Positions 49,832-64,000 are shown, counted from the first letter of the stretch. The stretch is DNA of 64,000 nucleotides from Dehalococcoidia bacterium (GCA_965249275.1 CBDFLQ010000005.1:576001-640000), one strand, 5' to 3'. Made by a program: numbers and translations. The notes: generated from the letters alone by a model not told the origin.

Positions 49832-49957
49832 ACAAGGTCCTCCTTGATACTGGTTGGACTCAGATGAACTCCGATAGGGACTGAGTATGCACGAGCCCTG
49901 CGACAGGGCCTCTGCCACCTCGGCGATGTACCGCCGCAAGGCCCGCTGGATGGAATT

Positions 49958-50008: not shown

Positions 50009-51043
50009 CTATTGGGAGAAGCGGGGAATGATATGCTCGCCGACCTTGCGGAACATGCCTATCTTATCGATGAGGGTGTAGGCGGTCATGGAGATGGTCT
50101 TTATCCCCAACTCGCCCAGTATCTCGATCCTTTCGCACATCTCGGAGGGGGTACCGGAGATGTGGTAGAAGTCGATGAGGCGCTGGGTTACGACGTGGGA
50201 ATGGGGAGCATCGACCCTCTCGGCGACGTCCGGGTCCAGGGCCTGGGCGAAGGTGCGGGAGTCGTTGATCAGGGCCTGGACGGAGCCGGGTTCGTTGGCT
50301 TCGAGGGCTTCCCGCAACTCGGCTACGTCAGCATCGTCCCTTTCGAGCATGTCGCAGAGGTCTGCGTAGCTGGAGGGGTAGGCGGAGGTCTCGCGTCGGG
50401 CGGCCTCTTTGGAGTCGGCGACGTAGAGCATGGTGCGGGCCCACGTGTCTATCTTGGAAAAGTCCCGGCCGGCCCTTTCCGCTCCCTTGCGCAGCTGATT
50501 AAGCTCCCATTCGACGTACACGGGATCGGTGCAGAGGGAGATCAGTCCGTCGGCGATTTCGCCGGCAAGCTGCATGGTCCTGGGCCCGTGGGCCGAGAGG
50601 TAGATGGGCAGTGGTTCGCCGATCCAGAAGGAGCGCATCTTCACGCCCTGAAACTCGGCTTCCTCACCGGCCATGAACTTTCGCATGAAGTGGACGGCCT
50701 CCCGCATGACGGCGTGGGTGACCTTCTTTCGGTTCTTCACGATGGGATTGCCCGTACCCAGACCAATGAACGCCCGCCCATCCGACAACTCGTTGATGGT
50801 GGCCGTCATATTGGCGATGACCGAGGGGTGGATGGTCACCGGGTCCACGACCCCGTGCCCTATCTTGATCCGGTTCGTGGCCTGAGCGGCCAGAGTCATC
50901 ATTATGTGGACGTCTCGGGACCTGATCGGGGAGTCGACCAGCGTGAGGTAGGTGAACCCGCTGTCCTCTACCACCTTGGCATGCTCCCCCACGTTTCTTG
51001 TGGTGAGGGTACCCCCCATCCCGACGCCGAAGTGCATCTTCAC
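50009..51043 (-). CDS. LLM-class oxidoreductase (Mer-like, possibly F420-dependent)
   Basis: E..GF, AT.RI.IG.GV..P...HP, ELS.GR...GLG.G, A.GPR...LAGEIADG. Confidence 0.88.
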   Translation of the reverse strand: MKMHFGVGMGGTLTTRNVGEHAKVVEDSGFTYLTLVDSPIRSRDVHIMMTLAAQATNRIKIGHGVVDPVTIHPSVIANMTATINELSDGRAFIGLGTGNPIVKNRKKVTHAVMREAVHFMRKFMAGEEAEFQGVKMRSFWIGEPLPIYLSAHGPRTMQLAGEIADGLISLCTDPVYVEWELNQLRKGAERAGRDFSKIDTWARTMLYVADSKEAARRETSAYPSSYADLCDMLERDDADVAELREALEANEPGSVQALINDSRTFAQALDPDVAERVDAPHSHVVTQRLIDFYHISGTPSEMCERIEILGELGIKTISMTAYTLIDKIGMFRKVGEHIIPRFSQ

Positions 51044-51052
51044 GGCAAGCTC

Positions 51053-51949
51053 CTAGCCCCGCGCCTCGACTCCGGCAAGCTTTTCCAGGACCTTGACGTA
51101 GGCCTGCGTACCCTCGTTGCCGTAGCCGTCGTTTTGGAGGACGTTGTAAAACTGCTGGATAAGACCGGTTAGCGGCAGGGGAAGCTGCATTTCCCGGCCT
51201 GCCTCGCTGATCAGGCGGAGGTCTTTGTGCATGAGCTTGACCATGAACCCGGGGTCGAAGTCTCTTTTGAGAACGCGTGAGCCCAGGTTCTGGAGCTGCC
51301 ATGAGCCTGCCGCCCCACCGGCTACGGCTTCGAACACGGGGCCAAGGTCTATGCCGGCCTTCGCCCCAAACACCAGTCCCTCGCAGACTGCCGCCAGCGT
51401 TCCACCGACGATAATCTGGTTCACCAGCTTGGTCACCTGACCCATGCCGTTGGCACCGGTGTAGATGATTGTTTTGCCCATAGCTTCGAATACGGGCATA
51501 CAGCGGTCGAAGACCGGCTTTTCTCCTCCGACCATTATGGACAGGGTGCCCTGGATAGCGCCCCAGGACCCGCCGCTGACCGGGGCATCAAGCATGCTGA
51601 CGCCCTTCCCGCCCAGGGCCTTGGCGATATCCTGGGTGATCTGAGGCGATATGGAGCTCATATCGATGACGACGGAGCCCTCGGCGGCGGCTTCTATGAC
51701 TCCGCCCGACCCGAGGATGACCTCCTCAACGTCCGGGGAATCGCTGACCATGGTTATAGTGACGTCGCTATTCCGTGCGACGTCGGCTGGGGAGTCGGCT
51801 ACGGTGGCGCCCATCTCTCCCAGTTCCTCGGCCTTGCTCCGGGTCCTGTTGTAGACAGTGAGGGGGAAACCCGCCTTGAGGATGTTGGAGGCCTGGGCCT
51901 TCCCCATAATCCCCAGGCCGACGAATCCGACCCGGTCTTGCTTCGCCAT
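51053..51949 (-). CDS. Beta-hydroxyacid dehydrogenase (2-hydroxy-3-oxopropionate reductase-like)
   Basis: GFVGLGIMG, IDMSSISP, LDAPVSGG, KLVNQ, KDL. Confidence 0.9.
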   Translation of the reverse strand: MAKQDRVGFVGLGIMGKAQASNILKAGFPLTVYNRTRSKAEELGEMGATVADSPADVARNSDVTITMVSDSPDVEEVILGSGGVIEAAAEGSVVIDMSSISPQITQDIAKALGGKGVSMLDAPVSGGSWGAIQGTLSIMVGGEKPVFDRCMPVFEAMGKTIIYTGANGMGQVTKLVNQIIVGGTLAAVCEGLVFGAKAGIDLGPVFEAVAGGAAGSWQLQNLGSRVLKRDFDPGFMVKLMHKDLRLISEAGREMQLPLPLTGLIQQFYNVLQNDGYGNEGTQAYVKVLEKLAGVEARG

Positions 51950-51972
51950 CGATTCCTCCTTGTGTGGGCCGG

Positions 51973-53310
51973 TCACTGGATTTCGGGGTCGAAGTCCATG
52001 CCTATGTGGCCCTCGGCCTCAAGCTCGGCGTATTCCCGGTCCGAGACCTTTAATATTTCTTTGTAGACGTATTCATTGTGCTCCCCGAGACGGCACGGAG
52101 GGTTTCGGACCACGGGCGGGGTGCGGGACATGTTGAAGATGAAGCCGGGGTAGTTGTGGGTGCCCGCCTCCGGGTGAGTAATCCTGTTGAAGAAGTCCCG
52201 TTCCTTCACGTGGGGATCGGAGTGTGCGTCTCCGGCGTGCATGACAGGGCCCGCGGGCACACCGCAACTTTGGAGCAGATGGAATGCCTCGTATTTGTCG
52301 TGCTGGACAGTCCACCGGGACAATTCCTCTTCGAGTTGGTCCGCGTTCTTCCAGCGGGAGTACTGGTCGGAGTAGCGTTCCTCCTGGCACCAGTCGGGAT
52401 TGCCCATAGCCTCGCACAAGCCGCGCCATTCGGAGTCGGTGGAGACGGTAATGTTGATCCAGCAGTTTTCGCCTTTAGCCGGGAACGCGCCGCACGGGGC
52501 CGAGCCGAAGTGATTCCTGTTCCCCTGAGTTCCCTGGAGCCGACCGTTCAGCGTGTAGTCCATCACTGCCTCTGCGAGGAAGGACACCGCATTCTCGGCT
52601 TGGGACAACTCGATGAACTGGCCCTTGCCAGTTCGCTTCCGGTAGTGTAGAGCGGCCATAACGGCGAAGGCGCCCTGGACACCCGCGGCGTAGTCGCCCA
52701 TATAGATGGCGCTGTTGGTTGAGGGGTCGGAGTCCCGGTATCCCCGGATGAGCGAGTGTCCTATCACCGATTCCAGGTGCACGCCCAGTGCACGGTAGTT
52801 CCGGTAGGGTCCGACGCTGCCGTAGGCGGGCACTCGGACCATGATGATGTCGGGGCGGATAGCCTTGAGCATGTCGTAGCTGATATTCAGCTTATCCATG
52901 GTCTCGGTGACGTTGTTCTCGTAGAAAATATCGCACTCTTTTATGAGGCGTTCGAGCATCTCCCTGCCCCTGGGCTGCTTGAGGTCGATGGTCACGCTCT
53001 TCTTGTTGCGGAACAGGTTGTTGAATCCGGGGCAGCGGTTCCAGGGTCGGGGGCCGGGATCGTTGTCGGGATAGCCACCCAGCATGGGCAGGAGATTAGG
53101 GACAGCCTCCTTTGGGGGCCTGGCTACGAAGCCCCGCGTCATCGGCTGCCAGTGGTGAATGTTTTCGACCTTGATGACCTCGGCACCGAGGTCGGCGAGG
53201 ATCTGGGTGGCGAATGGGCCGGCCCATACGACGCAGAAATCGAGTATACGGATGCCTTCCAGTGGCAGCCTGGACGCACTCTTCACCTTTCCATTGACCT
53301 TAGATGCCAT
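51973..53310 (-). CDS. Family III CoA-transferase, subunit with catalytic Asp
   Basis: WAGP...LADLGAEVIKVE, RNKKS, YMGDYAAG, P.LGEHN. Confidence 0.92.
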   Translation of the reverse strand: MASKVNGKVKSASRLPLEGIRILDFCVVWAGPFATQILADLGAEVIKVENIHHWQPMTRGFVARPPKEAVPNLLPMLGGYPDNDPGPRPWNRCPGFNNLFRNKKSVTIDLKQPRGREMLERLIKECDIFYENNVTETMDKLNISYDMLKAIRPDIIMVRVPAYGSVGPYRNYRALGVHLESVIGHSLIRGYRDSDPSTNSAIYMGDYAAGVQGAFAVMAALHYRKRTGKGQFIELSQAENAVSFLAEAVMDYTLNGRLQGTQGNRNHFGSAPCGAFPAKGENCWINITVSTDSEWRGLCEAMGNPDWCQEERYSDQYSRWKNADQLEEELSRWTVQHDKYEAFHLLQSCGVPAGPVMHAGDAHSDPHVKERDFFNRITHPEAGTHNYPGFIFNMSRTPPVVRNPPCRLGEHNEYVYKEILKVSDREYAELEAEGHIGMDFDPEIQ

Positions 53311-53313
53311 TGG

Positions 53314-54528
53314 TTAGATAACGCCCCTCTCCCGGAGCCTTGTCAGGTCATCCCTGCTGTAGCCCAGGTGCCCGTACACCTCTTCCAGGTGCTGGCCAAG
53401 CTCAGGGGCGGGACGTCTCATCTGGCGCGGGGTCTCTGCCATCCTGGTCGGAGCGCCCGGATAGGAGATGGGGCCCGTGTGGGGGTGGTCGAGCGTGGTC
53501 CAGAAAGCCCTGCCGGTAAACTGGGGGTCGTGAAGCAGGTCACTCATGGAGTAAAGGGGGCCGCAGAGGACTCGGGCTTTCTGCCCCTCCTCCCATATCT
53601 CGCGCTTGGTGCGCCCCATAAGCCAAGGAATGAAGAACTCGTTGAGCTCTTCCTGGAGCTCGGGGTCGGCGCCCGCGCCGGGCTCCAGCCACTTGGGGTC
53701 TTGCAGGAACTCGGGGTTGCCCAGCATCTTGACGACTCTGGGGAAGAGGTGCCCTCCGCCGGCCATCTCGATATAGCCGTCCTTGCAAGGCAGGGTGCCG
53801 GAGGCAAAGGCGGGTCCGGCCCAGCCGGCCTGCTGCGTGCTAATCCGCCCCGAATAGGCGTAGGCCATCAGTGCAGCGTGACGGCGGTCCACTCCCCCGA
53901 GCTGGGTCTCAAATATCGAGATATCCAGGTGCTGCCCCTCATCGTCGCGGTCGGCGGCCCAGAGAGCGCCCATAGTGGCGGCGGCTGCCGTGGCCCCGGC
54001 TTCGTACTGGGTTACGTTGCCGCCCTGCTTGAGGGGTTCGCGGCCCTCCATGCCAATGGAGTGCATCTCGCCACCCATGCCGAAGAGGACCAGCTCGGAG
54101 GCCTTGTAGTCGCGGTAGGGCCCCGATTCACCGAAGTTGCTTATGGACGTCATGACGAGACGGGGATTGATTTCAGAAAGAGCATCATAGCCCAGGCCCC
54201 AGGCGTCCATTACACCGGGAGCGTAGTTCTCGACCAGGATGTCGGCTTCCTTGACCAGCTCGTGGAGGATGAAGCGGCCTGACGTCACTTTCAGGTTTAG
54301 GGTGACGCTCCTCTTGTTGGTGTTGAGGTGGAGGAAGAGACCGCTCTTTTCGTGGTGAGGGTCGTCTTCGTAGAAGGGGCCGAGACGCCGGGCCGGGTCT
54401 CCGCCGTCGGGCCTTTCGACCTTGATGACGTCTGCGCCGTAGTCGGCCATGAGCTTGGTGCAGAAAGGCCCTGCAATGTACTGGGTTAGGTCGAGGACCT
54501 TTACACCTTCAAGCGCTTGGTCAAACAT
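53314..54528 (-). CDS. Family III CoA-transferase, subunit lacking catalytic Asp
   Basis: IAGP.C....ADYGADVIKVE, NKRSVTL, NFG..GPY; VTQYEAG at the Asp position. Confidence 0.92.
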   Translation of the reverse strand: MFDQALEGVKVLDLTQYIAGPFCTKLMADYGADVIKVERPDGGDPARRLGPFYEDDPHHEKSGLFLHLNTNKRSVTLNLKVTSGRFILHELVKEADILVENYAPGVMDAWGLGYDALSEINPRLVMTSISNFGESGPYRDYKASELVLFGMGGEMHSIGMEGREPLKQGGNVTQYEAGATAAAATMGALWAADRDDEGQHLDISIFETQLGGVDRRHAALMAYAYSGRISTQQAGWAGPAFASGTLPCKDGYIEMAGGGHLFPRVVKMLGNPEFLQDPKWLEPGAGADPELQEELNEFFIPWLMGRTKREIWEEGQKARVLCGPLYSMSDLLHDPQFTGRAFWTTLDHPHTGPISYPGAPTRMAETPRQMRRPAPELGQHLEEVYGHLGYSRDDLTRLRERGVI

Positions 54529-54646
54529 AATTCGCTTCTCGAAAGGAGCCGGTTATCCTGCCGGTCAGGGAGTGTTTGATTAACTAGTCGACAGCGGGTT
54601 TGAGTGGCTGGCGGCCCCGAATTTCAGGCCTCTCGTCAGCGTGGAC

Positions 54647-54705
54647 AATCTTAGCCACGAGGTAAGGGGGCTGTCAACGAAAGCATGTCATAGTCGTGCT
54701 ATAAT
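54647..54705. promoter_or_regulatory. Divergent promoters
   Basis: Minus strand TTGACA-18-TAAGAT; plus strand extended -10 TGcTATAAT (54697-54705). Confidence 0.6.
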
Positions 54706-54752
54706 CAGCCCCCTAATCCCGGCAGCGGCGCCGATGCGTCAAGGTGGACCTC

Positions 54753-56054
54753 ATGCACCTGGAACTGGCCTCCTACGATGTCAAGGACGTTGTCTTTTCA
54801 GATGAGGACGGCCTCGTAAAAGGCGTCCTCCACGTGGACAAGGCCGCTCTCCTAGACCACCTTTCCAAGGTCTCGCCGTTTGAGGCTATCGAACTCGACA
54901 TAGCCAGACCCGGCGAATCCGTACGGATTATTCATACGTTGGACGTGGTGGAGCCGAGGGCCAAGGCCCCGGGAGCCGGCCGTGTATTTCCCGGACTCCT
55001 GGGCCCGCCATTGGGCGCGGGTGAAGGGAGAACGCTCCGCCTAAATGGGGTTGCAGTGGTCGGGGTGGCGGAGCCCTTCGCCGGAGAGGACCACTGGGCC
55101 TTCCGGGAAGGGGTCATCGAGATGTCGGGGCTGGGGGCCGAGCTGTGCCCGTTTTCCAAGACCGTCAATCTTGTGGTGAAGTTTGTGCAGGAGCAGTCGG
55201 GGGAGGGGGTGCGGGAGAAGGAGAACTTCCAGGTTGATGCCTGGGACGACGAGGGAGAGCGTGCCATTGAGGCTACGAGGCTTCTAACAGTCCGAGCTGC
55301 CGAATATCTGGCCCGGGCAGCGCACGAGGCTGCACCGGACAATGTAACTTCCTATGACCTCACTCCTGCAAAGGAAGACCTGCCGAAAGTCGTATACATC
55401 CACCACAACGTCGGATCGTCCCTTTACGGTTGGTCTGACTACTCCTCCGACCACGCCATGCTTCTTCATCCCAACGAGATAATGGACGGCGTACTGGTAC
55501 TGTCCGACCGTTTTGTGGAGCCGGCGATCCGGGATTGCACCTACTTCCACCAGAACAACTCGATAATTGAGGAGTTGTATAGTCGGCACGGGAAAGACCT
55601 GAACTTCGCGGGAGTAGTCTTCTTCACTGGGCACTCGGCGACATTGGAGGACAAGGAGCGTGAGAGCGACAGCGCGGTGAAGCTGGCCAACGCGGTCGGG
55701 GCGGATGTAGCGATCGTATCTCCGTTCAGGAGCGGTCACAGTGGGGTGGCCTTCATGATGGTGTGTCAGAAGTGTGAACGGTCCGGGATAAATGTGGCCG
55801 TGGGAGTGTCGCAGCTGGTGGCAGGGGCGGGGGAGCCGGGGTTGAACCACTGGGTGCCGGAGGCGGATGCGATGGTGGTGTCGGGGAATGACAGGGAGAC
55901 GATGAAGCTGCCGGCGGTGGAAAGGGTTATAGGGGGCACGGAGCTTCTGAACGGCCTGGGAAGGGCCGATGCTGAGGTGGAGATAGAGGTGCGAAATCTG
56001 TACGGGCTCTCGGCGCCGATGGGGCCGACGCGTTTGTCGGCGGGGCTCTACTAG
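54753..56054 (+). CDS. Glycine/sarcosine/betaine reductase component B proprotein-like (GrdE-like)
   Basis: M.LEL, ARPGESVRI...DVVEPR.K, FPG, G.GRT..L.G, MSG.GA, HPNE.MDG, TY.HQN, LY.RHG.DLNF, PEADA. Confidence 0.85.
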   Translation: MHLELASYDVKDVVFSDEDGLVKGVLHVDKAALLDHLSKVSPFEAIELDIARPGESVRIIHTLDVVEPRAKAPGAGRVFPGLLGPPLGAGEGRTLRLNGVAVVGVAEPFAGEDHWAFREGVIEMSGLGAELCPFSKTVNLVVKFVQEQSGEGVREKENFQVDAWDDEGERAIEATRLLTVRAAEYLARAAHEAAPDNVTSYDLTPAKEDLPKVVYIHHNVGSSLYGWSDYSSDHAMLLHPNEIMDGVLVLSDRFVEPAIRDCTYFHQNNSIIEELYSRHGKDLNFAGVVFFTGHSATLEDKERESDSAVKLANAVGADVAIVSPFRSGHSGVAFMMVCQKCERSGINVAVGVSQLVAGAGEPGLNHWVPEADAMVVSGNDRETMKLPAVERVIGGTELLNGLGRADAEVEIEVRNLYGLSAPMGPTRLSAGLY

Positions 56055-56068
56055 ACGAAGGGGACGAA

Positions 56069-57376
56069 ATGCGGCTTGAACTGGCGTCCTTCCAAGTCCA
56101 CGACGTGGAAATCTCCTCGGAGACGCGTCTTTCGGGGAAAACGCTGTACGTCAACGAGATGGAACTGAAAGAGCATCTGCTCCCCGACCCGTATATCGAG
56201 GACATCCGGATGGAGGTGGCGAGGCCGGGGGAGAGCACCCGGATAGTGCATGCCGTGGACGTGGTGGAGCCGAGGGACAAGGCGTCGGGGCCGGGGACGG
56301 TGTTTCCGGGGCGGCTCGGGTCACCGACTCAGGTGGGAAGCGGCACGACGAACAGATTGGCAGGGATGACAGTAATCGGGACGGCGGAGCCTTTCGTTGG
56401 AGAGGAGTACTGGTATGCGCGGGAGGCGATCATCGACATGTCCGGGCCTGGGGCGGAGTTCTCACCCTTCTCCCAGACGGTAAACCTGGTGCTGCACTTC
56501 ATACCGAAAGCGGGGGGCGATGAGCTCGATCCGGCGAGGCGAAAGCAGTTCATAGTCGACACCCGGACCCGTGATGCCGAGTTTAGAATGAAGGCCACGC
56601 GGCAGCTGTGCCTAAAAGCGGCCAAGTTCCTCGCCGGGAAGGTGAGGGGCATGACGCCCGATCACACACAAACCTACGAGCTCGGGCCGGTGGACCCGGA
56701 GCTGCCGGGAGTCGTCTACCTGTGCAAGAGCCTGGCTGCCAGTTTCTACGGCTCCTTCACGACGACCCGGAACTGGGTAATGCCTATGCACCCGAACGAG
56801 TTGATGGACGGGGCTGTGTTGAACTTCGGGTTCCTGATTGCAGCCAACTTCCGCGACTGCACATACTCATACCAGCAAAACACCATAGTGGAAGAGCTTT
56901 ATTCGCGGCACGGCGTCGACCTAAACTTCCTCGGCGTCCTCTTCTACTCCGCTTTTCCGTACACGCTTGAAAACAAGGAGCTGGAGGCGGGGAGCGTGGT
57001 ACGTACGGCGAAGATGCTGGGGGCGGATGCGGCGATCATCGCACCTCTCAGCGACGGCCATCCCAGCGTCGAGACGATGATGATCTGCCAGATGTGTGAA
57101 GAGGCGGGGATCAGCACGGCAATCGGGGCGGGGGAGATGACGGTAGGGGAGGGAGACCCGGGCTTTACGCACTGGGCCCCCGAGGCCGACGCCCTGGTGA
57201 TTGCAGGGGACAGCCACAACAAGGTGAAACTTCCCGCCATGGACAGGGTGATAGGCGGGAGCCGGGTGCTGCACGGGGACCAGGAGGCATCGGGGGAGAT
57301 AGAGGTCGAGGCCCGGCAGATGTACGGGGCCAGCAACCCGGGTGGTGCGACCAAACTTATGGGTCGGCTGTATTAG
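56069..57376 (+). CDS. Glycine/sarcosine/betaine reductase component B proprotein-like (GrdE-like), second copy
   Basis: MRLEL, ARPGES.RI, IDMSGPGAE.SPFS, HPNELMDGA, LY.RHG.DLNF.GV, LGAD, PEADA, LP.MDRVIG. Confidence 0.87.
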   Translation: MRLELASFQVHDVEISSETRLSGKTLYVNEMELKEHLLPDPYIEDIRMEVARPGESTRIVHAVDVVEPRDKASGPGTVFPGRLGSPTQVGSGTTNRLAGMTVIGTAEPFVGEEYWYAREAIIDMSGPGAEFSPFSQTVNLVLHFIPKAGGDELDPARRKQFIVDTRTRDAEFRMKATRQLCLKAAKFLAGKVRGMTPDHTQTYELGPVDPELPGVVYLCKSLAASFYGSFTTTRNWVMPMHPNELMDGAVLNFGFLIAANFRDCTYSYQQNTIVEELYSRHGVDLNFLGVLFYSAFPYTLENKELEAGSVVRTAKMLGADAAIIAPLSDGHPSVETMMICQMCEEAGISTAIGAGEMTVGEGDPGFTHWAPEADALVIAGDSHNKVKLPAMDRVIGGSRVLHGDQEASGEIEVEARQMYGASNPGGATKLMGRLY

Positions 57377-57391
57377 CCGTCCTACCTCCCG

Positions 57392-58612
57392 GTGAAGGCA
57401 AAGTTGTCAAACGCCCACACTCCTCTATACGACCTGCGTGTCCTGGACCTATCCAGCAATCTGCCGGGGGCGTACTGCGCCCGATCCCTCTGTGCATATG
57501 GGGCCGACGTGATTCACATGGAGACGCCCGGTACAGGCAATACCCTTAGGGGCATCGGCCCGTTCTACAGGGACATTCCACATCCTGAGCGGGGCGTATT
57601 GCACAATCACGTGAACTGCGGCAAACGCAGCGTGACGCTGGACTTGGAGTCGGGGGCGGGGCGGAGGATGATGCTCGGCCTTACGAAGGACGCTGATGTC
57701 ATTATCGAGGACTGGGGCCCCGGAGCGATTGAAGCCCGGGGCCTGGGCTACGAGACCCTGGGCGAAGTTAACCCTGATCTGGTTATGGTCTCCCTCAGTA
57801 ACTTTGGACGCACGGGTCCTTACAAATACTACAAAGCATCTGAACTTATATCATCCGGCCTATCAGGGCCTCTGTACATCAACGGCGCCCTGGATAGGGA
57901 ACCGGTCAAAGCAGGTGGCAGGATAGTCCAATTTCAGGCGGGTGTTGTAGCAGCCCTCCTGACAATGGTGGCCGTCCGCTCGCGGGACCGATCGGGAGTT
58001 GGCAGCCGTGTTGATCTTTCTACTATGGAGACCCAGGCCGGCACCGCCGACCGCTGGGTGCCGGTCCTGCTCCACTACGCCTACACCGGCCAGATAGCGG
58101 AGCGAACGCGGGGAATAGTACTTGCCGGGGCCGGAGTGGTACCGACCCTGGACGGATATGCCAACACCCTTAATCCAACCACCCCCAGTCGGCTGAAGAA
58201 AATCATGACCATGGTAGGCAAACCCGACCTTGTAGAAAACCAGGAGTTTGCCGACCCGGAGCAACGGCTCGCCATGGTAAATGAAGAGTTCCTTCTATGG
58301 GCGCTTCAGCATTCCACCGATGAGATCGTCTACGCGGGATTGCGACACGGGGTGATGATCGGGCCCGTCCACACGCACGAGTCGCTCCATCAGGACGCAC
58401 ATATGCTGGTCCGACGTCCGTGGATTGAGGTGGAGCATCCCGAAATGGGGGTACAACCTTTTCCCCTCAGACCGGCGCAGCTATCCACTACGCCGATTCA
58501 GGTCTCGAGGCCCGCTCCTTGGCTGGGGGAGCACAACCGGGACGTGTACCGCGGAGAGCTGGGATACAGTAAAGCGGAGCTGGCAAGGCTGGGGCGGATG
58601 GGGGTGGTGTAG
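57392..58612 (+). CDS. Family III CoA-transferase, subunit lacking catalytic Asp
   Basis: YGADVI, KRSVTLDL, NFG.TGPY; IVQFQAG at the Asp position; APWLGEHN. Confidence 0.9.
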   Translation: MKAKLSNAHTPLYDLRVLDLSSNLPGAYCARSLCAYGADVIHMETPGTGNTLRGIGPFYRDIPHPERGVLHNHVNCGKRSVTLDLESGAGRRMMLGLTKDADVIIEDWGPGAIEARGLGYETLGEVNPDLVMVSLSNFGRTGPYKYYKASELISSGLSGPLYINGALDREPVKAGGRIVQFQAGVVAALLTMVAVRSRDRSGVGSRVDLSTMETQAGTADRWVPVLLHYAYTGQIAERTRGIVLAGAGVVPTLDGYANTLNPTTPSRLKKIMTMVGKPDLVENQEFADPEQRLAMVNEEFLLWALQHSTDEIVYAGLRHGVMIGPVHTHESLHQDAHMLVRRPWIEVEHPEMGVQPFPLRPAQLSTTPIQVSRPAPWLGEHNRDVYRGELGYSKAELARLGRMGVV

Positions 58613-58659
58613 ACTACTTATCTTGTAGAATTTCTTGTGTCACTGCCGCACTTTTCACT

Positions 58660-59265
58660 ATGCCAATTATTCGAAATAGAGTAGAGGCAAGCAGATTCAA
58701 CGACCTGCTAGCCTTGCCTTATGAATTGCGTCTGCAAGACTTCGAACTTGCAATGCAGGACGTGTACGACTTCTTCTTCGACGTGAACGCTCATCTCACC
58801 GGGAAGGGCCTCCAAAGGTTGGACGATATGCTGCGGCCCGCAATAATGTCTGGTGTATTGTCGGATATGCTGACTGCCAGCTTGGCCAAGCACTCACGCG
58901 TCCTTACGGAAAATCGTTATCACAATGGACATCCGGATCTTGTAGTTCAAGGGGTGCACCCTACCAATGCGGTCAAGGCTGGAACACACGGGGTGGAAGT
59001 GAAGACAACACGTAAGGCCGGAGGCGCCGTAGACACCCATGGCGCTCGGAACCAGTGGTTATGTGTGTTTGTATATCAGGTGGATACGGAATCGGAGCCA
59101 GCTCTGGACCGGAGGCCCATGACTTTCACCGAAGTTTATCTTGGACACGTCACGGTTGACGACTTCCGAAAAAACCCGCGCGGCGAACTTGGCACACGAA
59201 CGGCAACACTACACAAGGATGGAATCCGGGGATTGCGGGAGAGATGGGTATATAAAGCAGGTTGA
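58660..59265 (+). CDS. Putative type II restriction endonuclease (PD-(D/E)xK)
   Basis: NRYHNGHPDL...GVEVK motif; convergent with a DNA methyltransferase. Confidence 0.7.
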   Translation: MPIIRNRVEASRFNDLLALPYELRLQDFELAMQDVYDFFFDVNAHLTGKGLQRLDDMLRPAIMSGVLSDMLTASLAKHSRVLTENRYHNGHPDLVVQGVHPTNAVKAGTHGVEVKTTRKAGGAVDTHGARNQWLCVFVYQVDTESEPALDRRPMTFTEVYLGHVTVDDFRKNPRGELGTRTATLHKDGIRGLRERWVYKAG

Positions 59266-59267
59266 GC

Positions 59268-60407
59268 CTAGTCCCAAGAGACCTGTGTAAGTTTCGGGAT
59301 TGAGCCACGGGCCATTTCGAAATATACCTCGTCTTTCTCCACGCCGATGCTGGAGTAGCCCACTGATTCCGCAGCAGCCAGAGTTGATCCTGCCCCTGCG
59401 AAAGTATCCAAGACGACCCCCTCTCCGAGAGGTAAGATCGAGCGTACCAGTTGTCTTAAGAAGGCCTGAGGCTTGAGGCTAGGGTGTGGAGCTAAGTCTC
59501 GCTCTGATTTCCTTGTTGGCGAAGAACGAATCACATCCCCGAATGGCCGGTCTCGGCAGGGGCGCCGAAATCCCCCGGCATTCCATCTCCGCAAATTATC
59601 CTGGACCCTGCCCTCCAAGGGTTTGCGACAAACGATCCAGGGTTCCCACATGGAACGAGGCATTACACTTACGTTGGGGAACTCGTCGTGAGCAGATTTC
59701 GGTCGGTCCCCTCCCCGTAAAGTCATTGTCAGCCGCACAATCTCTCCCCGGCGCTCGAAACCGGCATCCGCCAAAGCTGTCGACACCAAGTAAGAGACTA
59801 GAGGATTGGAAGCCACAACTACGTTTGCTCCCGGTACAAGCTTGGGTATGAGCAGCCGACCCCACACAAAGAAAAAGGCCCTGATTTGGTCAAGTTGTTC
59901 CGGAGTTAAAATAGTAAATCGAGGCAGGGGAGAACGAACATGGCCGTCAAAAGAAGGGGGGATGCGCCAGACGCCACCCTTTCCGGTCCGGAGCTTGGCC
60001 TGCTGTTCTCGAGTGTATTCGTGAAGACCATAAGGAGGATCTGTGACAACCGCATGTATGCTATTGTCATCTTGTTGGCCCAGCCAGTCGAAGCAGTCCG
60101 CGTGATAGAGAGTGGCCGCCCCGAAAGAAAATGGGGGACTCCATTCCCTTTCCAAACGCAGTTCTCTCTGGGTCCCGAGAGATGCCGCTGACCGGAGTGC
60201 GTATACCCCGCGTTCCTCCCGTATGAACCTCGTTGGTGTATTCAACCTCAGATAGGAGCGAACCGAGGAAGCTCGGGTAGGGCCAACCACCTGCGTCACT
60301 CGCCCTTCGATCTCCTTGACGGACAAGTGTTTCGAAGTGAGGGACATTACCTGGATTATGCCGTCCCTTACGCGTCCGGGTGCATATCTGCTTCGATTCT
60401 CTGTCAT
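59268..60407 (-). CDS. Beta-class N4/N6 DNA methyltransferase with N-terminal winged-helix-like extension
   Basis: TDPPY (motif IV) precedes HPSLKP and VLDTFAGAGST (motif I); about 90 extra N-terminal residues. Confidence 0.92.
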   Translation of the reverse strand: MTENRSRYAPGRVRDGIIQVMSLTSKHLSVKEIEGRVTQVVGPTRASSVRSYLRLNTPTRFIREERGVYALRSAASLGTQRELRLEREWSPPFSFGAATLYHADCFDWLGQQDDNSIHAVVTDPPYGLHEYTREQQAKLRTGKGGVWRIPPSFDGHVRSPLPRFTILTPEQLDQIRAFFFVWGRLLIPKLVPGANVVVASNPLVSYLVSTALADAGFERRGEIVRLTMTLRGGDRPKSAHDEFPNVSVMPRSMWEPWIVCRKPLEGRVQDNLRRWNAGGFRRPCRDRPFGDVIRSSPTRKSERDLAPHPSLKPQAFLRQLVRSILPLGEGVVLDTFAGAGSTLAAAESVGYSSIGVEKDEVYFEMARGSIPKLTQVSWD

Positions 60408-60516
60408 TTCAACTTGAATAGTAGACGTCTGGACGTCTGTAGTCAAATCTAATGCTACTCGCCCTCTAGAGCGTTCGTATTGACATCCCCTTAATATGAA
60501 TTAACAATTCACTGCC

Positions 60517-61857
60517 GTGAGCATGCGTGACAACCCGTCGACACTTCGACAGAGTGGAAACAAGCGCCCATCCTTTCCCTTGGAAGGGATACGAGTGGTG
60601 GCCATCACGCAAGCGTGGGCCGGGCCCTATGCCGGGACCTTATTGGCCGACTGGGGCGCTGAGGTGATACAGGTAGAAAGCCGGGAGCGTTTCCCCGTTG
60701 GCACTCGAGGGTTGGTTGTAGATGGGAAGGGTGTAGTGCCTGAGAAGGAGCGCATGTGGTCAAGAGGTTACCCAGACTGGGACGGGGGCGAGAGGCCGTG
60801 GAACCGGTACGTGGGATTCAACGCTCTGAATAGGAACAAGTTGGGAATTACCCTCAACGAGTCCCGGGAGGAGGGCCGGGAACTGCTGCTCGATCTCGTG
60901 TCCATTTCGGATGTCGTGCTGGAGAACAACCCACCCTCGATGTTGAATGATTCCTCGCTAGACTATTCCGACCTTCGTAAGATCAAACCCGACCTGATTA
61001 TGGCCAGAATGCCCGGTTATGGACAGACCGGCCCCTACAAGGAGATGAGGGCTTGGGGTTCCCATATCGAGGGATTTATAGGTCATACCTGGGTCCGCAG
61101 CTACGGCGACATCGACCCGTCCCTGAAGGACGACGTGTATCCCTCGGACGCGGTGGCGGGAATCACAACGGCGTTCTCGATACTCGTTGCACTGCGGCAT
61201 CTACAGGCCACAGGCGAGGGCCAGCTTATCGACGCGCCTCTCTCCGAGGGCTTGATACCGTTCCTCGCCGAGGCTTTCGTGGACTACACGATGAACGGGC
61301 GCGTCCAGTCGGCCATTGGGAACGCGGACACGTCCATGGCGCCGCATAACGTGTACCGGTGCTCGGGGGACGACCTGTGGGTCTCGATCAGTGTGGGTAG
61401 CGACGAGGAATGGGAAGGGCTGGTGCGGGCAATGGGGCAGCCAGCGTGGGCGTCGGATCGAAAGTTCTCTCACGTGCTGGGTCGGTGGAGATGCCAGGAG
61501 GAGATCAACGCTCATATTGGTGAGTGGACGGAGGGTCTCACTTCAAGAGAGGTGATGGAGAGGCTTCAGGCGTCAGGTGTACCAGCCGGGATGGTCCACA
61601 ATACCGAACAAGCATACGAGGACCCGCAGCTGGAGACCCTCGACTTCTTCCAGGAGGTCACCCACCCGGAGGCGGGGACTCACCGGTATCCGGGAATCAT
61701 TGGACAAATCTCGGGCTTTCCCAATCGCATCCGGAGACCTGCTCCGTGCCTGGGAGAGCACAACGAATATGTGTACCGGGAGCTTGTGGGCATGTCCGCT
61801 GAACGGTACAGGCAACTGGAAGACCTGGGCCAGATAGGTGATGAATATCTGACCTAG
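60517..61857 (+). CDS. Family III CoA-transferase, subunit with catalytic Asp
   Basis: WAGP...LAD.GAEVI.VE, RPWNR, NRNK, YPSDAVAG, LGEHN; paralog of 51973..53310. Confidence 0.92.
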   Translation: MSMRDNPSTLRQSGNKRPSFPLEGIRVVAITQAWAGPYAGTLLADWGAEVIQVESRERFPVGTRGLVVDGKGVVPEKERMWSRGYPDWDGGERPWNRYVGFNALNRNKLGITLNESREEGRELLLDLVSISDVVLENNPPSMLNDSSLDYSDLRKIKPDLIMARMPGYGQTGPYKEMRAWGSHIEGFIGHTWVRSYGDIDPSLKDDVYPSDAVAGITTAFSILVALRHLQATGEGQLIDAPLSEGLIPFLAEAFVDYTMNGRVQSAIGNADTSMAPHNVYRCSGDDLWVSISVGSDEEWEGLVRAMGQPAWASDRKFSHVLGRWRCQEEINAHIGEWTEGLTSREVMERLQASGVPAGMVHNTEQAYEDPQLETLDFFQEVTHPEAGTHRYPGIIGQISGFPNRIRRPAPCLGEHNEYVYRELVGMSAERYRQLEDLGQIGDEYLT

Positions 61858-61876
61858 GCCGGGTAGCCGGGCCCGC

Positions 61877-63175
61877 TTACTGCAGTCTTCGTATCTTGCC
61901 AACTCCCTGCTCAGCGAAGCGGGTCAGGCGGAAATCGTAGAGAGACAACGAGGGGGTGCCGTCCAGGATAAGCTCTGAGATCAGCTTGCCGGTTATCGGG
62001 CCGAGGGCGAAACCGTGACCGCTAAAGCCGGTGGCCAGAATCAGTCCCTTGACGCCCGGCGCCTCTCCGAGGACGGGCAGGATGTCGGGGGTGATGTCGA
62101 TGAGGCCGGCCCAGGTCTTTACGAATCGCAGGCCGCTCAGGTGGGGCATGTGCTCGAAAAAGGCCTTGCGCATGCGCTTGATAGTGTTCCAGTTCACCTC
62201 GGGCTCCACGCCCACGGTAGTCGAGAAGAACTTCCGGTTCTGCACCGTACCGGGCACATGGCTAAGCACGTCGTTCAGGAGTTGGCTCCCGACGTGGAAG
62301 GCTATCTGCTTTCTGAACTGGCTTAGGCCCGGCAGGAAGTATTTCAAGTCCCTCACCGAGGTGAGATCTAAGTCATGATCGGCCTTGAGGGCGGAGCCAG
62401 CGCCCAGGAGGATGTTGCCGTCGGCGGTGGGGCGGAATGAGACCCTGGGAGACCAGACAAGGGGGGCGCGGTAGTCGGGCATGGGCTCTGTAATGGTGAC
62501 GTGGGTCCGGACTACCCGCACCGGAACCCTCACGTCGCAGGTCCTGGCCAGACGGGGAGCCCAGACGCCGGCGGCGTTGACCACGATGTCGGCCTCTATC
62601 TTCTCGCCGCGTTCGGTTATGACGCCCTTGACCTGCCCGCCGGAAGTCTCGATACGCTCCACCGAGCAGCCGGTACGCACCGTGGCACCGTTCTCCTGGG
62701 CGGCCCTGGCGAAGGCATTGGTGGTCTTGACGGGGTGCGCATAGCCGTCGCTGGGTGAGTACATACCGCCGATGAACTTGCCAGAGAGCCCGGGCAGTAT
62801 CTCCTGGGCCCGCTTGCGGTCCACTATGTCGGATTCCAGGCCATATTCCCTGGTGATTCTGACGGTGTTCTCAAAGTCGGCGAGCTCTTTGGCATTAGAG
62901 GCGAGAAGAATGTTGCCGCCGCGAATGAAATGAGTCTCGGTGCCCAGGTCTTCGCTGAGCTTGTCCCAGAGCTTCAGGCTCTCGATGGCCAGGGGAACCT
63001 CGGGGGCCTGGCGGCCCTGCCGCCGGACGGCGCCCCAAGTCCTGCCGGAGGCCTCGTCGGCGATCTGGCCCTTTTCAAGAAGGATGACGTGGGCGCCACG
63101 CTTGGCGAGGTTGTAGGCGGTAGCGCAGCCGGAGATTCCTCCGCCTACGACTATAACGTCGGTCTTAGTTGCCAT
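61877..63175 (-). CDS. FAD-dependent oxidoreductase (DAO/sarcosine oxidase beta-like)
   Basis: VVGGGISG, ASGR..G, AAGVW, WAG.ID.TPD, GFSGHGF..GP. Confidence 0.9.
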   Translation of the reverse strand: MATKTDVIVVGGGISGCATAYNLAKRGAHVILLEKGQIADEASGRTWGAVRRQGRQAPEVPLAIESLKLWDKLSEDLGTETHFIRGGNILLASNAKELADFENTVRITREYGLESDIVDRKRAQEILPGLSGKFIGGMYSPSDGYAHPVKTTNAFARAAQENGATVRTGCSVERIETSGGQVKGVITERGEKIEADIVVNAAGVWAPRLARTCDVRVPVRVVRTHVTITEPMPDYRAPLVWSPRVSFRPTADGNILLGAGSALKADHDLDLTSVRDLKYFLPGLSQFRKQIAFHVGSQLLNDVLSHVPGTVQNRKFFSTTVGVEPEVNWNTIKRMRKAFFEHMPHLSGLRFVKTWAGLIDITPDILPVLGEAPGVKGLILATGFSGHGFALGPITGKLISELILDGTPSLSLYDFRLTRFAEQGVGKIRRLQ

Positions 63176-63190
63176 TCCTAATACGCTTTC

Positions 63191-64000
63191 TCACTTGGCC
63201 TGGGCGTACCACTGGAGGAGGGGGTGAATTTGGCGTACCAGCTCTTCTCCCTCGGGGCTGATGGCGTTCTTGGCCAGATCTGCAATGGTAACCGCGGCGT
63301 TGGACTGATGAAATACGGAGCGAGCCTTTTCGAGGGTCGGCTCATCGTCAATGTAGACTTCCTTGATGCTGGATTCGGTGTCGGTCCAGACTAGCTTGAC
63401 CGGGTCTATGGGGCCCGAGTACTCAATGCGGTCGCCGCCGATCTCCTCAGGGAACCAGAGTCGGTGGCCGTTGGAGCTGCCCAGTTTGACGACCTGAGGC
63501 TCGATGTCTTTGCTCACCTGCTGCAGACCGTTGAGCCTAGCCAGAGAGGCTGTCAGCCTCATAACCGGGCCGAGACCCTGCTCGTCGCCGGAATTGGAGC
63601 CATCGCTTCCAAGGGCTACGTTCACGCCTTCCCGCAGCATCGTGCCTATGGGGGTGATGCCGTTCTGCAGCTTCATGTTGCTGAGGGGATTGTGGGAGAC
63701 GGAGACCCCGCGGTCGGCGAGGAGTTCGATGTCATCCCGGGACACCTGTACGCAGTGTGCGGCCAGGGTGCGCTCCGTGAGCAGCCCAAACTTGTCCAGT
63801 CTCTGGACGCCGCTCATTCCCCATTGGTGCATGGCGGCCTCGCGCTGGACGGGGGACTCTTCGACGTGAATTTCGAGGGGGATGTCTAGTTTTGCAAGAG
63901 TGTCCCTGGCGGCTTCGAGGAGGGCGTCGGTGCACCAGACGGCGTTGCCGAGGGCTAGGCCAATCTGTACCCGCTTGCCGCTCCAGCCCTTGATCAGTTC
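63191..64000 (-). CDS. Amidohydrolase (MTA/SAH deaminase-like), 5' end outside the window
   Basis: Frame open to the window edge; HVEES, AHCV, HNP.SN.KL..G, ALGSDG. Confidence 0.85.
   Translation of the reverse strand, partial: ELIKGWSGKRVQIGLALGNAVWCTDALLEAARDTLAKLDIPLEIHVEESPVQREAAMHQWGMSGVQRLDKFGLLTERTLAAHCVQVSRDDIELLADRGVSVSHNPLSNMKLQNGITPIGTMLREGVNVALGSDGSNSGDEQGLGPVMRLTASLARLNGLQQVSKDIEPQVVKLGSSNGHRLWFPEEIGGDRIEYSGPIDPVKLVWTDTESSIKEVYIDDEPTLEKARSVFHQSNAAVTIADLAKNAISPEGEELVRQIHPLLQWYAQAK

Follow-up and report, generated by a model that had tools for sequence, protein, structure and literature searches.

Tandem GrdE-like proteins lacking the cleavage cysteine are candidate substrate-side subunits of a dispersed, GrdD-less selenium reductase in Dehalococcoidia

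Introduction

What do two tandem GrdE-like genes do between pairs of family III CoA-transferase genes, at a locus carrying no other subunit of a Grd reductase? The question is raised by a Dehalococcoidia window, that is, the whole 64,000-nucleotide stretch of DNA analysed here, within which grdA, grdB, grdC, grdD and thioredoxin genes have no match, as the initial annotation had reported. That annotation treated the two proteins as orphans with an altered cleavage motif and proposed a non-Stickland use of the GrdE fold.

Organisation of the locus

Both genes encode proteins matching PF09338 over their full length, the family of GrdE and GrdG from Acetoanaerobium and Peptoclostridium, and their products share 46% identity; dN/dS of grdE1 and of grdE2 is 0.07–0.11 in six of six pairs (about 0.09). 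The tandem pair, the four family III CoA-transferases, the LLM-class and beta-hydroxyacid dehydrogenase genes, the DAO-family flavoprotein and the amidohydrolase all lie where they had first been placed:

48425..49939, minus strand: solute-binding lipoprotein SBP_bac_8, last of the divergent run; in 8/8 congener loci
50009..51043, minus strand: LLM-class (Mer-like) oxidoreductase, reaching no NCBIfam cut-off; kept in 8/8 congeners, none seen in the G010 locus (gene map)
51053..51976, minus strand: beta-hydroxyacid dehydrogenase, tartronate-semialdehyde reductase-like, below cut-off; kept in 8/8 congeners, G009 and G010
51973..53310, minus strand: family III CoA-transferase subunit with Asp (PF02515)
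53314..54528, minus strand: family III CoA-transferase subunit without Asp, divergent from grdE1 (PF02515; best PDB match 9fn0_A)
54753..56054, plus strand: grdE-like 1 (GrdE1), 433 aa (PF09338, E 1e-91, 307.9 bits, cut-off 22.2)
55509..55544, plus strand: GrdE1 segment R253-Y264, in place of the canonical cleavage segment (alignment to references)
56069..57376, plus strand: grdE-like 2 (GrdE2), 435 aa (PF09338, E 4e-88, 296.2 bits, cut-off 22.2)
56831..56866, plus strand: GrdE2 segment F255-Y266, in place of the canonical cleavage segment (alignment)
57392..58612, plus strand: family III CoA-transferase subunit, BbsE-like, without catalytic Asp (PF02515; Gln at the Asp column)
58660..60446, convergent: inserted pair of an unannotated 201-aa ORF and an N6/N4 DNA methyltransferase, restriction-modification-like
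60517..61857, plus strand: family III CoA-transferase subunit, BbsF-like, with Asp (PF02515; best PDB match 9fn0_B)
61877..63175, minus strand: DAO-family flavoprotein closing a convergent run that includes amidohydrolases and hydantoinase A
63191..64000, minus strand: amidohydrolase, TRZ/ATZ-like, 422 aa, continuing beyond the window end

A gap of 15 bp separates grdE2 from the next caiB on the same strand. The insertion at 58660–60446, which the initial annotation did not list, splits the right-hand CoA-transferase pair and lies outside the grdE system: among the congeners, the ORF and methyltransferase occur together only in G002 and the methyltransferase alone in G004, while the other six lack both, and in the gene maps of congeners without the insertion the BbsF-like gene directly follows the BbsE-like gene. 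The DAO-family flavoprotein adjoins the last caiB in 8/8 congeners and in G010; its tie to the grdE genes is uncertain.

The cleavage segment

The pyruvoyl-forming cysteine is residue 242 in both Acetoanaerobium noterae GrdE and Peptoclostridium acidaminophilum GrdG. Alignment identifies it as the first Cys of GN-CV(S/A)(A/P)CDK, with which PrdA T-CVGP also aligns, rather than the Cys of "SA/CDK" to which cleavage had been assigned and which is residue 246; peptide 242–266 contains a second Cys (PMC9908766). Both cysteines are lost in the window pair, which shares 33–35% identity with GrdE and GrdG. Specifically, GrdE1 has Arg253/Phe254 at the Cys242 site and Ala258 at Cys246, followed by R260-D-C262-T-Y, whereas GrdE2 has Phe255/Leu256, Asn260 and RDCTY at the equivalent positions; the segments PAIRDCTY and ANFRDCTY are indeed present as first read. 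Relative to the GrdE and GrdG references, Lys is replaced by Arg, and EG(F/Y)GN aligns with xxxGH (G328-H329 in GrdE1), in agreement with the annotated change to GH. None of 59 GrdE paralogues from the family has Cys at the 242 site. The highest NCBIfam scores of GrdE1 and GrdE2 are to GrdG, at 235.7 and 213.8 (cut-off 780, missed), and FarE is missed as well (126.9 and 99.4; cut-off 675). Judged from these sequences, GrdE1 and GrdE2 are uncleavable and cannot form the canonical pyruvoyl group; both are predicted alpha subunits.

FarE/FarB and GrdI have already been described as missing the cleavage cysteine and CxxC (PMC10838667). Betaine reductase protein B, GrdI/GrdH, is the type that reduces glycine betaine to trimethylamine; the Enterococcus gilvus version (reference pCR1A) resembles the present system in that its alpha subunit stays uncleaved and carries a hydrophobic residue, Phe in GrdI, in place of Cys242, its beta subunit contains Sec, and GrdA and GrdC occur in the genome. 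It differs in that GrdI, 30% identical to the window GrdE proteins, retains EGYGN and has FMPCSSKWSTY. RDCTY is thus not the GrdI motif, whereas its being the normal one there had been named as contrary to the non-Stickland proposal; moreover, a single E. gilvus operon also groups grdD, trxAB and a BCCT transporter. Fluoroacetate reductase FarE/FarB of Cloacibacillus porcorum (PMC10838667) pairs an alpha subunit without the two processing Cys with a beta subunit without CxxC and feeds GrdA and a protein C encoded elsewhere, as here, but its host is an anaerobe whose protein C is canonical and whose predicted product is acetyl phosphate. In the window, moreover, no radical SAM or antiporter gene lies beside the pair, its neighbours being CoA-transferases.

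Grd subunits elsewhere in the genome

The pair is orphaned within the window only, since contig C6 of the same genome encodes two GrdE, two GrdB, GrdC and GrdA. Each GrdB has an in-frame TGA and scores far above TIGR01918 (509 and 491 bits; cut-off 65), while both miss the GrdH cut-off of 775 (434.7 and 416.8); both, like all copies examined from the family, read UGTGTRSG in place of the UxxCxxC that GrdH retains. GrdA is a selenoprotein with a CxxU motif (CFVU), as in glycine and sarcosine reductase (NF040748, 203.2 bits, cut-off 130), and GrdC likewise exceeds its cut-off (NF040746, 672.8 bits, cut-off 450). The suggested genome-wide search thus recovers Sec-GrdA, Sec-GrdB, GrdC, selA, selB, selD and a trxB-like gene. 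The present assembly (G000) reaches 87% completeness, and the segment that bears selC, trxA, cox1 and the triplet is missing from it; among its kin, tRNA-Sec with a UCA anticodon is present in 5/5 and trxA in 11/11.

GrdE and GrdC co-occur in the same 17 of 61 class genomes. No GrdD, AckA or Pta is detected in this 87% complete genome, nor does any of the 61 exceed the GrdD cut-off, hence none of the 17 either; the model recognises 3/3 control records at 549–581 bits, and such searches detect only GrdD/PlsX-like proteins. Acetate kinase (AckA) is found in 0/12 family genomes and in 1/18 genomes searched, with the GrdD-less G030 having one, and Pta in 0/12 family genomes. The absence of GrdD and of Ack/Pta, together with the cytochrome c oxidase (cox1) of the kin, supports the view that this is not a canonical Stickland reductase. 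That part of the initial proposal stands; its free-standing GrdE fold is not supported.

The alpha subunits are numerous and dispersed, with six to nine GrdE-like proteins per genome against two or three GrdB. In G010 a member of the window clade directly precedes the GrdB2 orthologue, and the other GrdE pair of G000 sits among acyl-CoA genes.

Predicted GrdE1–GrdB2 complex

A complex model of GrdE1 with GrdB2 (C6:129729) scores 0.93 against 0.00 for the best of three controls, the pass mark being reached by 116/157 solved pairs and 2/215 mismatched pairs. GrdB2 was modelled as residues 1–351, cut at Sec, from self-made alignments and with GrdE1 as the only alpha subunit; runs share at least 86% of contacts, with partner pLDDT of at least 89. 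The score also passes close cousins of a true partner and so does not tell GrdB1 from GrdB2. In the model, the interface holds G328-H329 of GrdE1 and GrdB2 residue 351, adjacent to Sec. A PDB sequence search returns no relative of GrdE or GrdB. It is very probable that GrdE1 and GrdE2 work with a GrdB.

GrdC as candidate acetyl acceptor

The genome's GrdC is about 30 C-terminal residues shorter than the canonical protein and has FCC for FCA. Tail length follows GrdD: among the 18 measurable of 80 metagenome loci, those with a short tail lack GrdD (10/10) and those with a long tail have it (8/8). The GrdC model (pLDDT 87.7) has SpoVAD, KAS III, thiolase-like proteins and PqsC as top Foldseek matches, and the Cys that opens FCC falls at the FabH Cys in an alignment that is weak on its own (E 0.07). 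GrdC thus resembles the FabH/thiolase superfamily in its fold, a nucleophile Cys at a helix start and invariant Asn388 and His441, which we take to be the thiolase NEAF and GHP motifs, but differs in its low identity (9–16%), a TM-score of 0.33–0.40 on the query and an extra invariant Cys273; C272, C273, N388 and H441 are unchanged in 105/105 sequences. FabH can move acetyl back and forth between its Cys and CoA. Speaking against such a role, GrdC alone was reportedly inactive on acetyl phosphate, and the acetyl site was reportedly mapped to GrdD (Kohlstock 2001).

CoA-transferase neighbours and competing explanations

In each window caiB pair, only one of the two genes carries the Asp (PF02515). 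The two caiB examined match chains A and B of benzylsuccinate CoA-transferase BbsEF (PDB 9fn0) best, albeit distantly (E 1e-46 to 1e-58), and no bbs pathway is seen here. BbsEF has one catalytic subunit. The grdE–caiB layout recurs in 8/8 congeners and in G010, loci that are close kin and not independent, and it persists in a second genus at a CaiB identity of only 45–72%. Beyond these, caiB lies beside GrdE in 0/80 distant loci, in 0/5 grd clusters of other Dehalococcoidia families and in 0/4 triplet clusters of the congeners. The linkage with CoA-transferases on which the initial proposal leaned is therefore kept within the family and absent from distant loci; functional coupling of grdE to its neighbours is a real possibility, somewhat short of even.

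An unlikely alternative is that GrdC of a GrdD-less reductase hydrolyses the thioester to free acetate and the CoA-transferases are inherited synteny. It draws on the abundance of about 66 caiB genes in the genome, the CaiB expansion described for SAR202 (PMC5395668), the same Asp/no-Asp type in 16 of 19 tandem caiB pairs, and the caiB-free state of other GrdE clusters. A caiB falls within 5 kb of a random 2.6-kb stretch in 19% of placements, but four do so in only 0.7%, this locus itself counted, the layout survives in the second genus despite CaiB divergence, and hydrolysis would waste the thioester in an AckA-less cell.

A little less likely is a route in which the CoA-transferases make X-CH2-CO-SCoA, the thioester rather than a pyruvoyl group activating the alpha carbon; the chain would remain bound to CoA while passing GrdB and GrdA, with GrdC only binding the CoA end and stabilising the enolate as acetyl-CoA is released. 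The close, conserved grdE2–caiB arrangement, the joint absence of pyruvoyl site, GrdD, AckA and Pta, and the acyl-CoA setting of the other GrdE pair suit this route, as does a review noting that the canonical mechanism leaves carboxylate activation unexplained (PMC10298544). Against it, Cys242 loss and GrdD loss separate in distant loci, five having Cys242 and a short GrdC without GrdD and three having GrdD without Cys242; none of the 80 has caiB, and the invariant nucleophile Cys of GrdC would be superfluous.

A free-standing GrdE enzyme, self-cleaving or catalysing at the RDC Cys without GrdB, as first proposed, is highly improbable. The window has no grd partner, whereas 72/80 distant GrdE loci contain grdB, the RDC motif is common to both genes, and a substitute Ser can also yield pyruvoyl; yet among 49 clade members the position is Cys in 33, Ala in 13 and Ser in 3. 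These 16 replacements include GrdE2 orthologues 93–95% identical to it, and two close orthologues read RDSTY. The shared Cys does lie four residues past Cys246 as annotated, but 8–9 past the true cleavage site, aligning with Pro/Thr of DKNPTY. Self-cleavage at RDC is accordingly not supported, nor is the free-standing fold, given the Sec-GrdA, Sec-GrdB and GrdC of the genome, their co-occurrence with GrdE and the passing complex model.

Equally remote are an unrelated GrdD substitute still making acetyl phosphate, which the GrdD/PlsX-limited searches would miss but which fits poorly with 12/12 family genomes lacking AckA and Pta and with the lack of any uncharacterised gene common to the grdB-grdC-grdA clusters in G010 and the genus of G000, and redox protection by a GrdB peroxidase with GrdE as stabiliser, for which a reference title in PMC3091704 (GrdB peroxidase activity) and the cox1-based aerobic life of the kin speak, but which leaves strict GrdC co-occurrence and the six to nine alpha paralogues unexplained.

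Proposed role

On balance, we favour the window pair as substrate-side subunits of a dispersed, GrdD-less selenium reductase. GrdD being the acetyl-phosphate-forming subunit, its absence suggests that the product is handed to coenzyme A, and acetyl-CoA is slightly favoured as that product. GrdE1 and GrdE2 are predicted to serve interchangeably as alpha subunits for a selenoprotein GrdB whose gene lies outside the window. By family analogy, the substrate would be a substituted acetate that, like betaine or fluoroacetate, needs no Schiff base, and a betaine/DMSP-like compound, as first suggested, may be one; the GrdB selenol would displace the leaving group X of a candidate X-CH2-COO-, and the carboxymethyl group would pass to the GrdA Sec, thioredoxin then re-reducing GrdA. 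GrdC, with its thiolase/FabH fold and nucleophile Cys272, may accept the acetyl group and pass it to CoA, as FabH does. In the weakest step, the co-oriented BbsEF-type CoA-transferases might spend acyl-CoA on activating acids of the same pathway. With six to nine alpha paralogues in each genome, two or three GrdB catalytic subunits would reach a wider range of substrates.

More speculatively, and on present evidence improbably, aerobic SAR202-type Dehalococcoidia may hold six to nine uncleaved GrdE "specificity" subunits in separate catabolic clusters around two or three GrdB cores, with CoA-thioester activation instead of pyruvoyl and GrdC alone releasing acetyl-CoA. If true, this modular CoA-linked system would be a new way to cleave C-N, C-S and C-halogen bonds of substituted acetates, and it would reveal the role of GrdC in the classical enzyme.

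Uncleavable alpha subunits encoded in the window

The two tandem GrdE-like genes described in the initial annotation are real, and both products belong to PF09338. These genes and a nearby insertion are positioned in the window as follows.

54753–56054: grdE1, 433 aa, PF09338 over nearly the full length
56069–57376: grdE2, 435 aa, PF09338 over nearly the full length
58660–60446: unannotated ORF and N6/N4 DNA methyltransferase gene, convergent, inserted between two caiB (CoA-transferase) genes

GrdE1 and GrdE2 share 46% identity and fall inside one 49-member clade (FastTree support 1.00). Both are under purifying selection, with dN/dS of 0.07–0.11 in 12 of 12 pairs covering both genes. Against the NCBIfam models they score 235.7 and 213.8 for GrdG and 126.9 and 99.4 for FarE, the respective cut-offs of 780 and 675 lying far above. 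Close relatives carry the taxon label Dehalococcoidia, and some homologues that of the SAR202 cluster. RNA-library contigs (four runs, two studies) match each of the two grdE genes in part, with about 91–94% identity; since these are contigs alone, from related strains and in small shares, they do not demonstrate grdE transcription. The deepest contigs in such runs, which cannot rank genes, correspond to a solute-binding lipoprotein (48425–49939) with TAMP(E/D)A repeats close to its N-terminus. Promoter and terminator scanning of the sequence remained at chance level (6 versus 4.5 and 13 versus 11.2).

The motif GN-CV(S/A)(A/P)CDK, as found in A. noterae GrdE and P. acidaminophilum GrdG, has residue 242 as its first Cys and residue 246 as its second. 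In C. difficile GrdE the pyruvoyl peptide spans residues 242–266 and contains one further Cys (PMC9908766). PrdA is reported to be cleaved at T420–C421 (PMC11229817), and the T-CVGP of a PrdA sequence aligns with Cys242. The peptide and the alignment therefore place cleavage at the first Cys of the motif, and the residue originally named as self-cleaving was the wrong one. At the true site the window proteins carry Arg/Phe (GrdE1) and Phe/Leu (GrdE2), with Ala and Asn, respectively, at position 246; both are uncleavable. Among 160 aligned proteins, 157 were scorable and only five have Cys at 242, namely four references and another Dehalococcoidia genome (G034). Moreover, none of the 59 scorable paralogues in the 11 GrdE-bearing genomes of the family retains it, a single family row being left out for its altered anchor.

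The change of EGxGN to GH is seen on the alignment. The Cys of RDC, by contrast with its proposed role as a shifted cleavage residue, aligns with the Pro of DKNPTY; across the clade this position is Cys in 33 members, Ala in 13 and Ser in 3, the Arg being present in 49/49, and Ser occurs even in orthologues 93–95% identical to GrdE2. With Ala or Ser there in 16 of 49 members, catalysis or self-cleavage at this Cys is rejected. RDCTY as a GrdI motif was ruled out on one GrdI reference, which has Phe at 242 and a motif differing from that of the window proteins. Paralogues that carry Cys or Ser two positions ahead of Arg were likewise dropped as cleavable candidates, Cys242 lying six residues before Lys. 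FarE and GrdI have been described without the processing cysteines, and FarB without CxxC (PMC10838667).

Selenoprotein partners encoded in trans

The pair is not an orphan: the window corresponds to C5:576001–640000 of the source genome (G000, 87% complete), which holds further reductase genes on contig C6.

C6:683426 and C6:684890: two additional GrdE-like genes
C6:703060–706410: grdB-grdC-grdA cluster
C6:129729: second grdB (GrdB2)

In GrdA and both GrdB proteins the Sec residue is encoded by an in-frame TGA, and selA, selB and selD are all over cut-off. The genome profile search recovered GrdE, GrdB, GrdC and GrdA, GrdD not being found in G000. Neither tRNA-Sec nor thioredoxin was found in the assembly. 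In congeners (eight genomes of the same genus) selC lies directly beside trxA (L161, L148 = G001:C1:286544–287044, and others), and the congener segment that holds selC, trxA, cox1 and a grdE triplet has no match in G000; no tRNA-Sec was found because this segment is missing from the assembly. Among kin, tRNA-Sec with a UCA anticodon was present in 5/5 tested and cox1 in 11/11.

Three tRNA-like genes with a long variable arm (C5:382659–385511; anticodons GCC, TGC and apparent GCC) resemble allo-tRNAs and adjoin a transposase-like ORF. Additionally, contig C7 encodes a PrdB-like selenoprotein with PA-U-PLDH (L004:7426–8238, minus strand), with no PrdA in the assembly; many class genomes that lack GrdE have short GrdB-like matches similar to it.

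Expansion of GrdE and a predicted GrdB interface

PF09338 matches number 7–9 per congener, some being pieces of broken genes, 7 in G009 and 6 in G010, two other members of the family. These genomes each have a single GrdC and two full GrdB, G010 having three; another family genome, G011, lacks both GrdE and GrdC. Such an expanded alpha-subunit set suggests that substrate range is determined by GrdE and not by GrdB alone. Three congeners hold broken or interrupted paralogues (G002:C1:2136271–2137416, G003:C7:2352045–2354431, G007:C1:1182740–1183926), which points to continuing gain and loss. Genes 2 and 3 of the triplet are separated by a PIN-domain gene together with a small ORF (L100:10320–11101, L101, L103).

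At distant GrdE loci grdB is present in 72 of 80, and the G010 member of the window's clade lies directly upstream of a grdB that is the GrdB2 orthologue (support 1.0; 68% versus 55% identity). A complex model of GrdE1 with GrdB2 (residues 1–351) scored 0.93, the best control 0.00; 116/157 solved pairs and 2/215 mismatched pairs attained the mark. Runs agree in at least 86% of contacts, with partner pLDDT of at least 89. The confident interface comprises GrdE1 327–329, the GH motif, and GrdB2 351, next to Sec; GrdE1 260–262 is not named in it, and the tool graded it uncertain. The model supports a predicted binding of GrdE1 to a GrdB, and cannot choose between the GrdB paralogues. PDB sequence searches gave no match for GrdE2 and no meaningful match for GrdB2, and Foldseek with the GrdE1 model (pLDDT 86.4) none at E≤0.001. 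The best fold comparison for GrdE1 (VIA Z 8.5, rmsd 3.6) spans 143 residues within the C-terminal alpha/beta domain, whose architecture is a common one.

GrdC in the absence of GrdD

Of 61 class genomes, 17 carry GrdE, and GrdC occurs in exactly those 17. The GrdD model, which recovered GrdD in 3/3 control records, was over cut-off in 0/61, with weak matches of 18–32 bits in 28; PF02504 and tblastn with E. gilvus GrdD found nothing in G000. Acetate kinase and Pta were detected in 0/12 family genomes, and each in 1/18 searched genomes over cut-off, both in other families. GrdC ends 15–21 residues past GSLFLGRMT in these genomes versus 46–49 in three GrdD-bearing references, and carries FCC in place of FCA in all except G023. 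Its nearest homologues have FCC in 120/120 and a tail of at most 30 residues in 103 of 104 measurable. GrdC was present in 23 of 80 metagenome loci, 18 with a measurable tail: it was long in 8/8 with GrdD adjacent and short in 10/10 with none in the locus. At these loci, Cys242 and GrdD are lost independently of each other. G034 (L110, L145) encodes a canonical NCVSACDK GrdE but has a GrdB with UGTDTRCG, a short FCC GrdC and no GrdD; systems of this type (Cys242 GrdE, short GrdC, no GrdD) recur in five metagenome loci.

The GrdC model (pLDDT 87.7) matches thiolase-fold proteins (E ~2e-9), and a weak profile match pairs the first Cys of FCC with the FabH nucleophile. A PDB sequence search gave no match for GrdC, and its profile reached none of the thiolase/FabH proteins of G000.

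Linkage with CoA-transferase pairs

The neighbouring genes are as initially annotated, apart from the unlisted insertion at 58660–60446, which breaks the right-hand CoA-transferase pair. Just one of eight congeners has both inserted genes, and another has the methyltransferase without the ORF; further insertions lie at nearby points in kin, such as a Mrr-type nuclease in G010. Each window caiB pair combines one gene with an Asp, which we take to be catalytic, and one without, and the two genes tested best match benzylsuccinate CoA-transferase chains. G000 has 66 caiB matches, or 62 when counted a second way; among its 19 tandem pairs, 16 join an Asp-bearing with an Asp-less gene, making BbsEF-type pairs the rule. 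Expansion of caiB is known for SAR202 (PMC5395668). By chance, one caiB within 5 kb is expected at 19% and four at 0.7%, the latter including this locus itself.

The layout caiB-caiB divergent from grdE-grdE(-grdE)-caiB-caiB, followed by a DAO-family flavoprotein, recurs in 8/8 congeners and G010, and partly on a short contig of G009. Genes for caiB were absent from 4/4 triplet clusters examined, from five grd clusters belonging to other families and from 80/80 distant loci; the metagenome matches listed all fall outside the window's clade (best 40%). Conservation of the neighbourhood holds among kin and not at distant loci: within this clade the association is genuine, though it depends on closely related genomes, and GrdD-less systems in general do not share it.

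A route from creatinine or hydantoin to sarcosine (hydantoinase A, amidohydrolase, DAO) was not adopted: its genes run convergent, with no hydantoinase B beside them, and sarcosine reductase depends on the pyruvoyl site. In the neighbourhood scanned, no B subunit accompanies the hydantoinase/oxoprolinase A gene (L005:4512–6572, minus strand).

Proposed mechanism and significance

The window system belongs to none of GrdE/GrdG, GrdI/GrdH, FarE/FarB or the canonical system, and may work in the manner of betaine/fluoroacetate reductase protein B. On balance we favour a GrdD-less reductase in which GrdE is predicted to bind a GrdB encoded elsewhere, Sec would attack a substituted acetate needing no Schiff base, the group would then move to GrdA, acetyl would pass through GrdC Cys272 to CoA, and CoA-transferases would reuse the resulting acyl-CoA. 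In the classical enzyme, Kohlstock (2001) reportedly located the acetyl site on GrdD, which counts against the GrdC-to-CoA reading. Release of free acetate, with incidental caiB synteny, is unlikely. Thioester-first activation is rather improbable. A free-standing enzyme acting at RDC, where the Cys is replaceable, is very improbable, as is a hidden GrdD substitute or a peroxidase role.

Uncleaved alpha subunits are already published (GrdI, FarE), which tempers the finding, and other Dehalococcoidia have been reported to contain glycine reductases of canonical type (PMC9751293). Searches in the full text of open-access and bioRxiv papers yielded no report of GrdD-less systems or SAR202 GrdE expansion. 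Conversion of the carboxymethyl-selenoether to an acyl thioester is described as an unexplained step in how glycine reductase works (PMC10298544). What GrdC does is not settled, and a natural system with an invariant FabH-type Cys in GrdC and without GrdD, AckA or Pta makes it directly testable, here with four proteins and CoA. Collectively, these observations place a supposedly anaerobic Stickland enzyme in oxygen-respiring SAR202-type bacteria with expanded alpha subunits.
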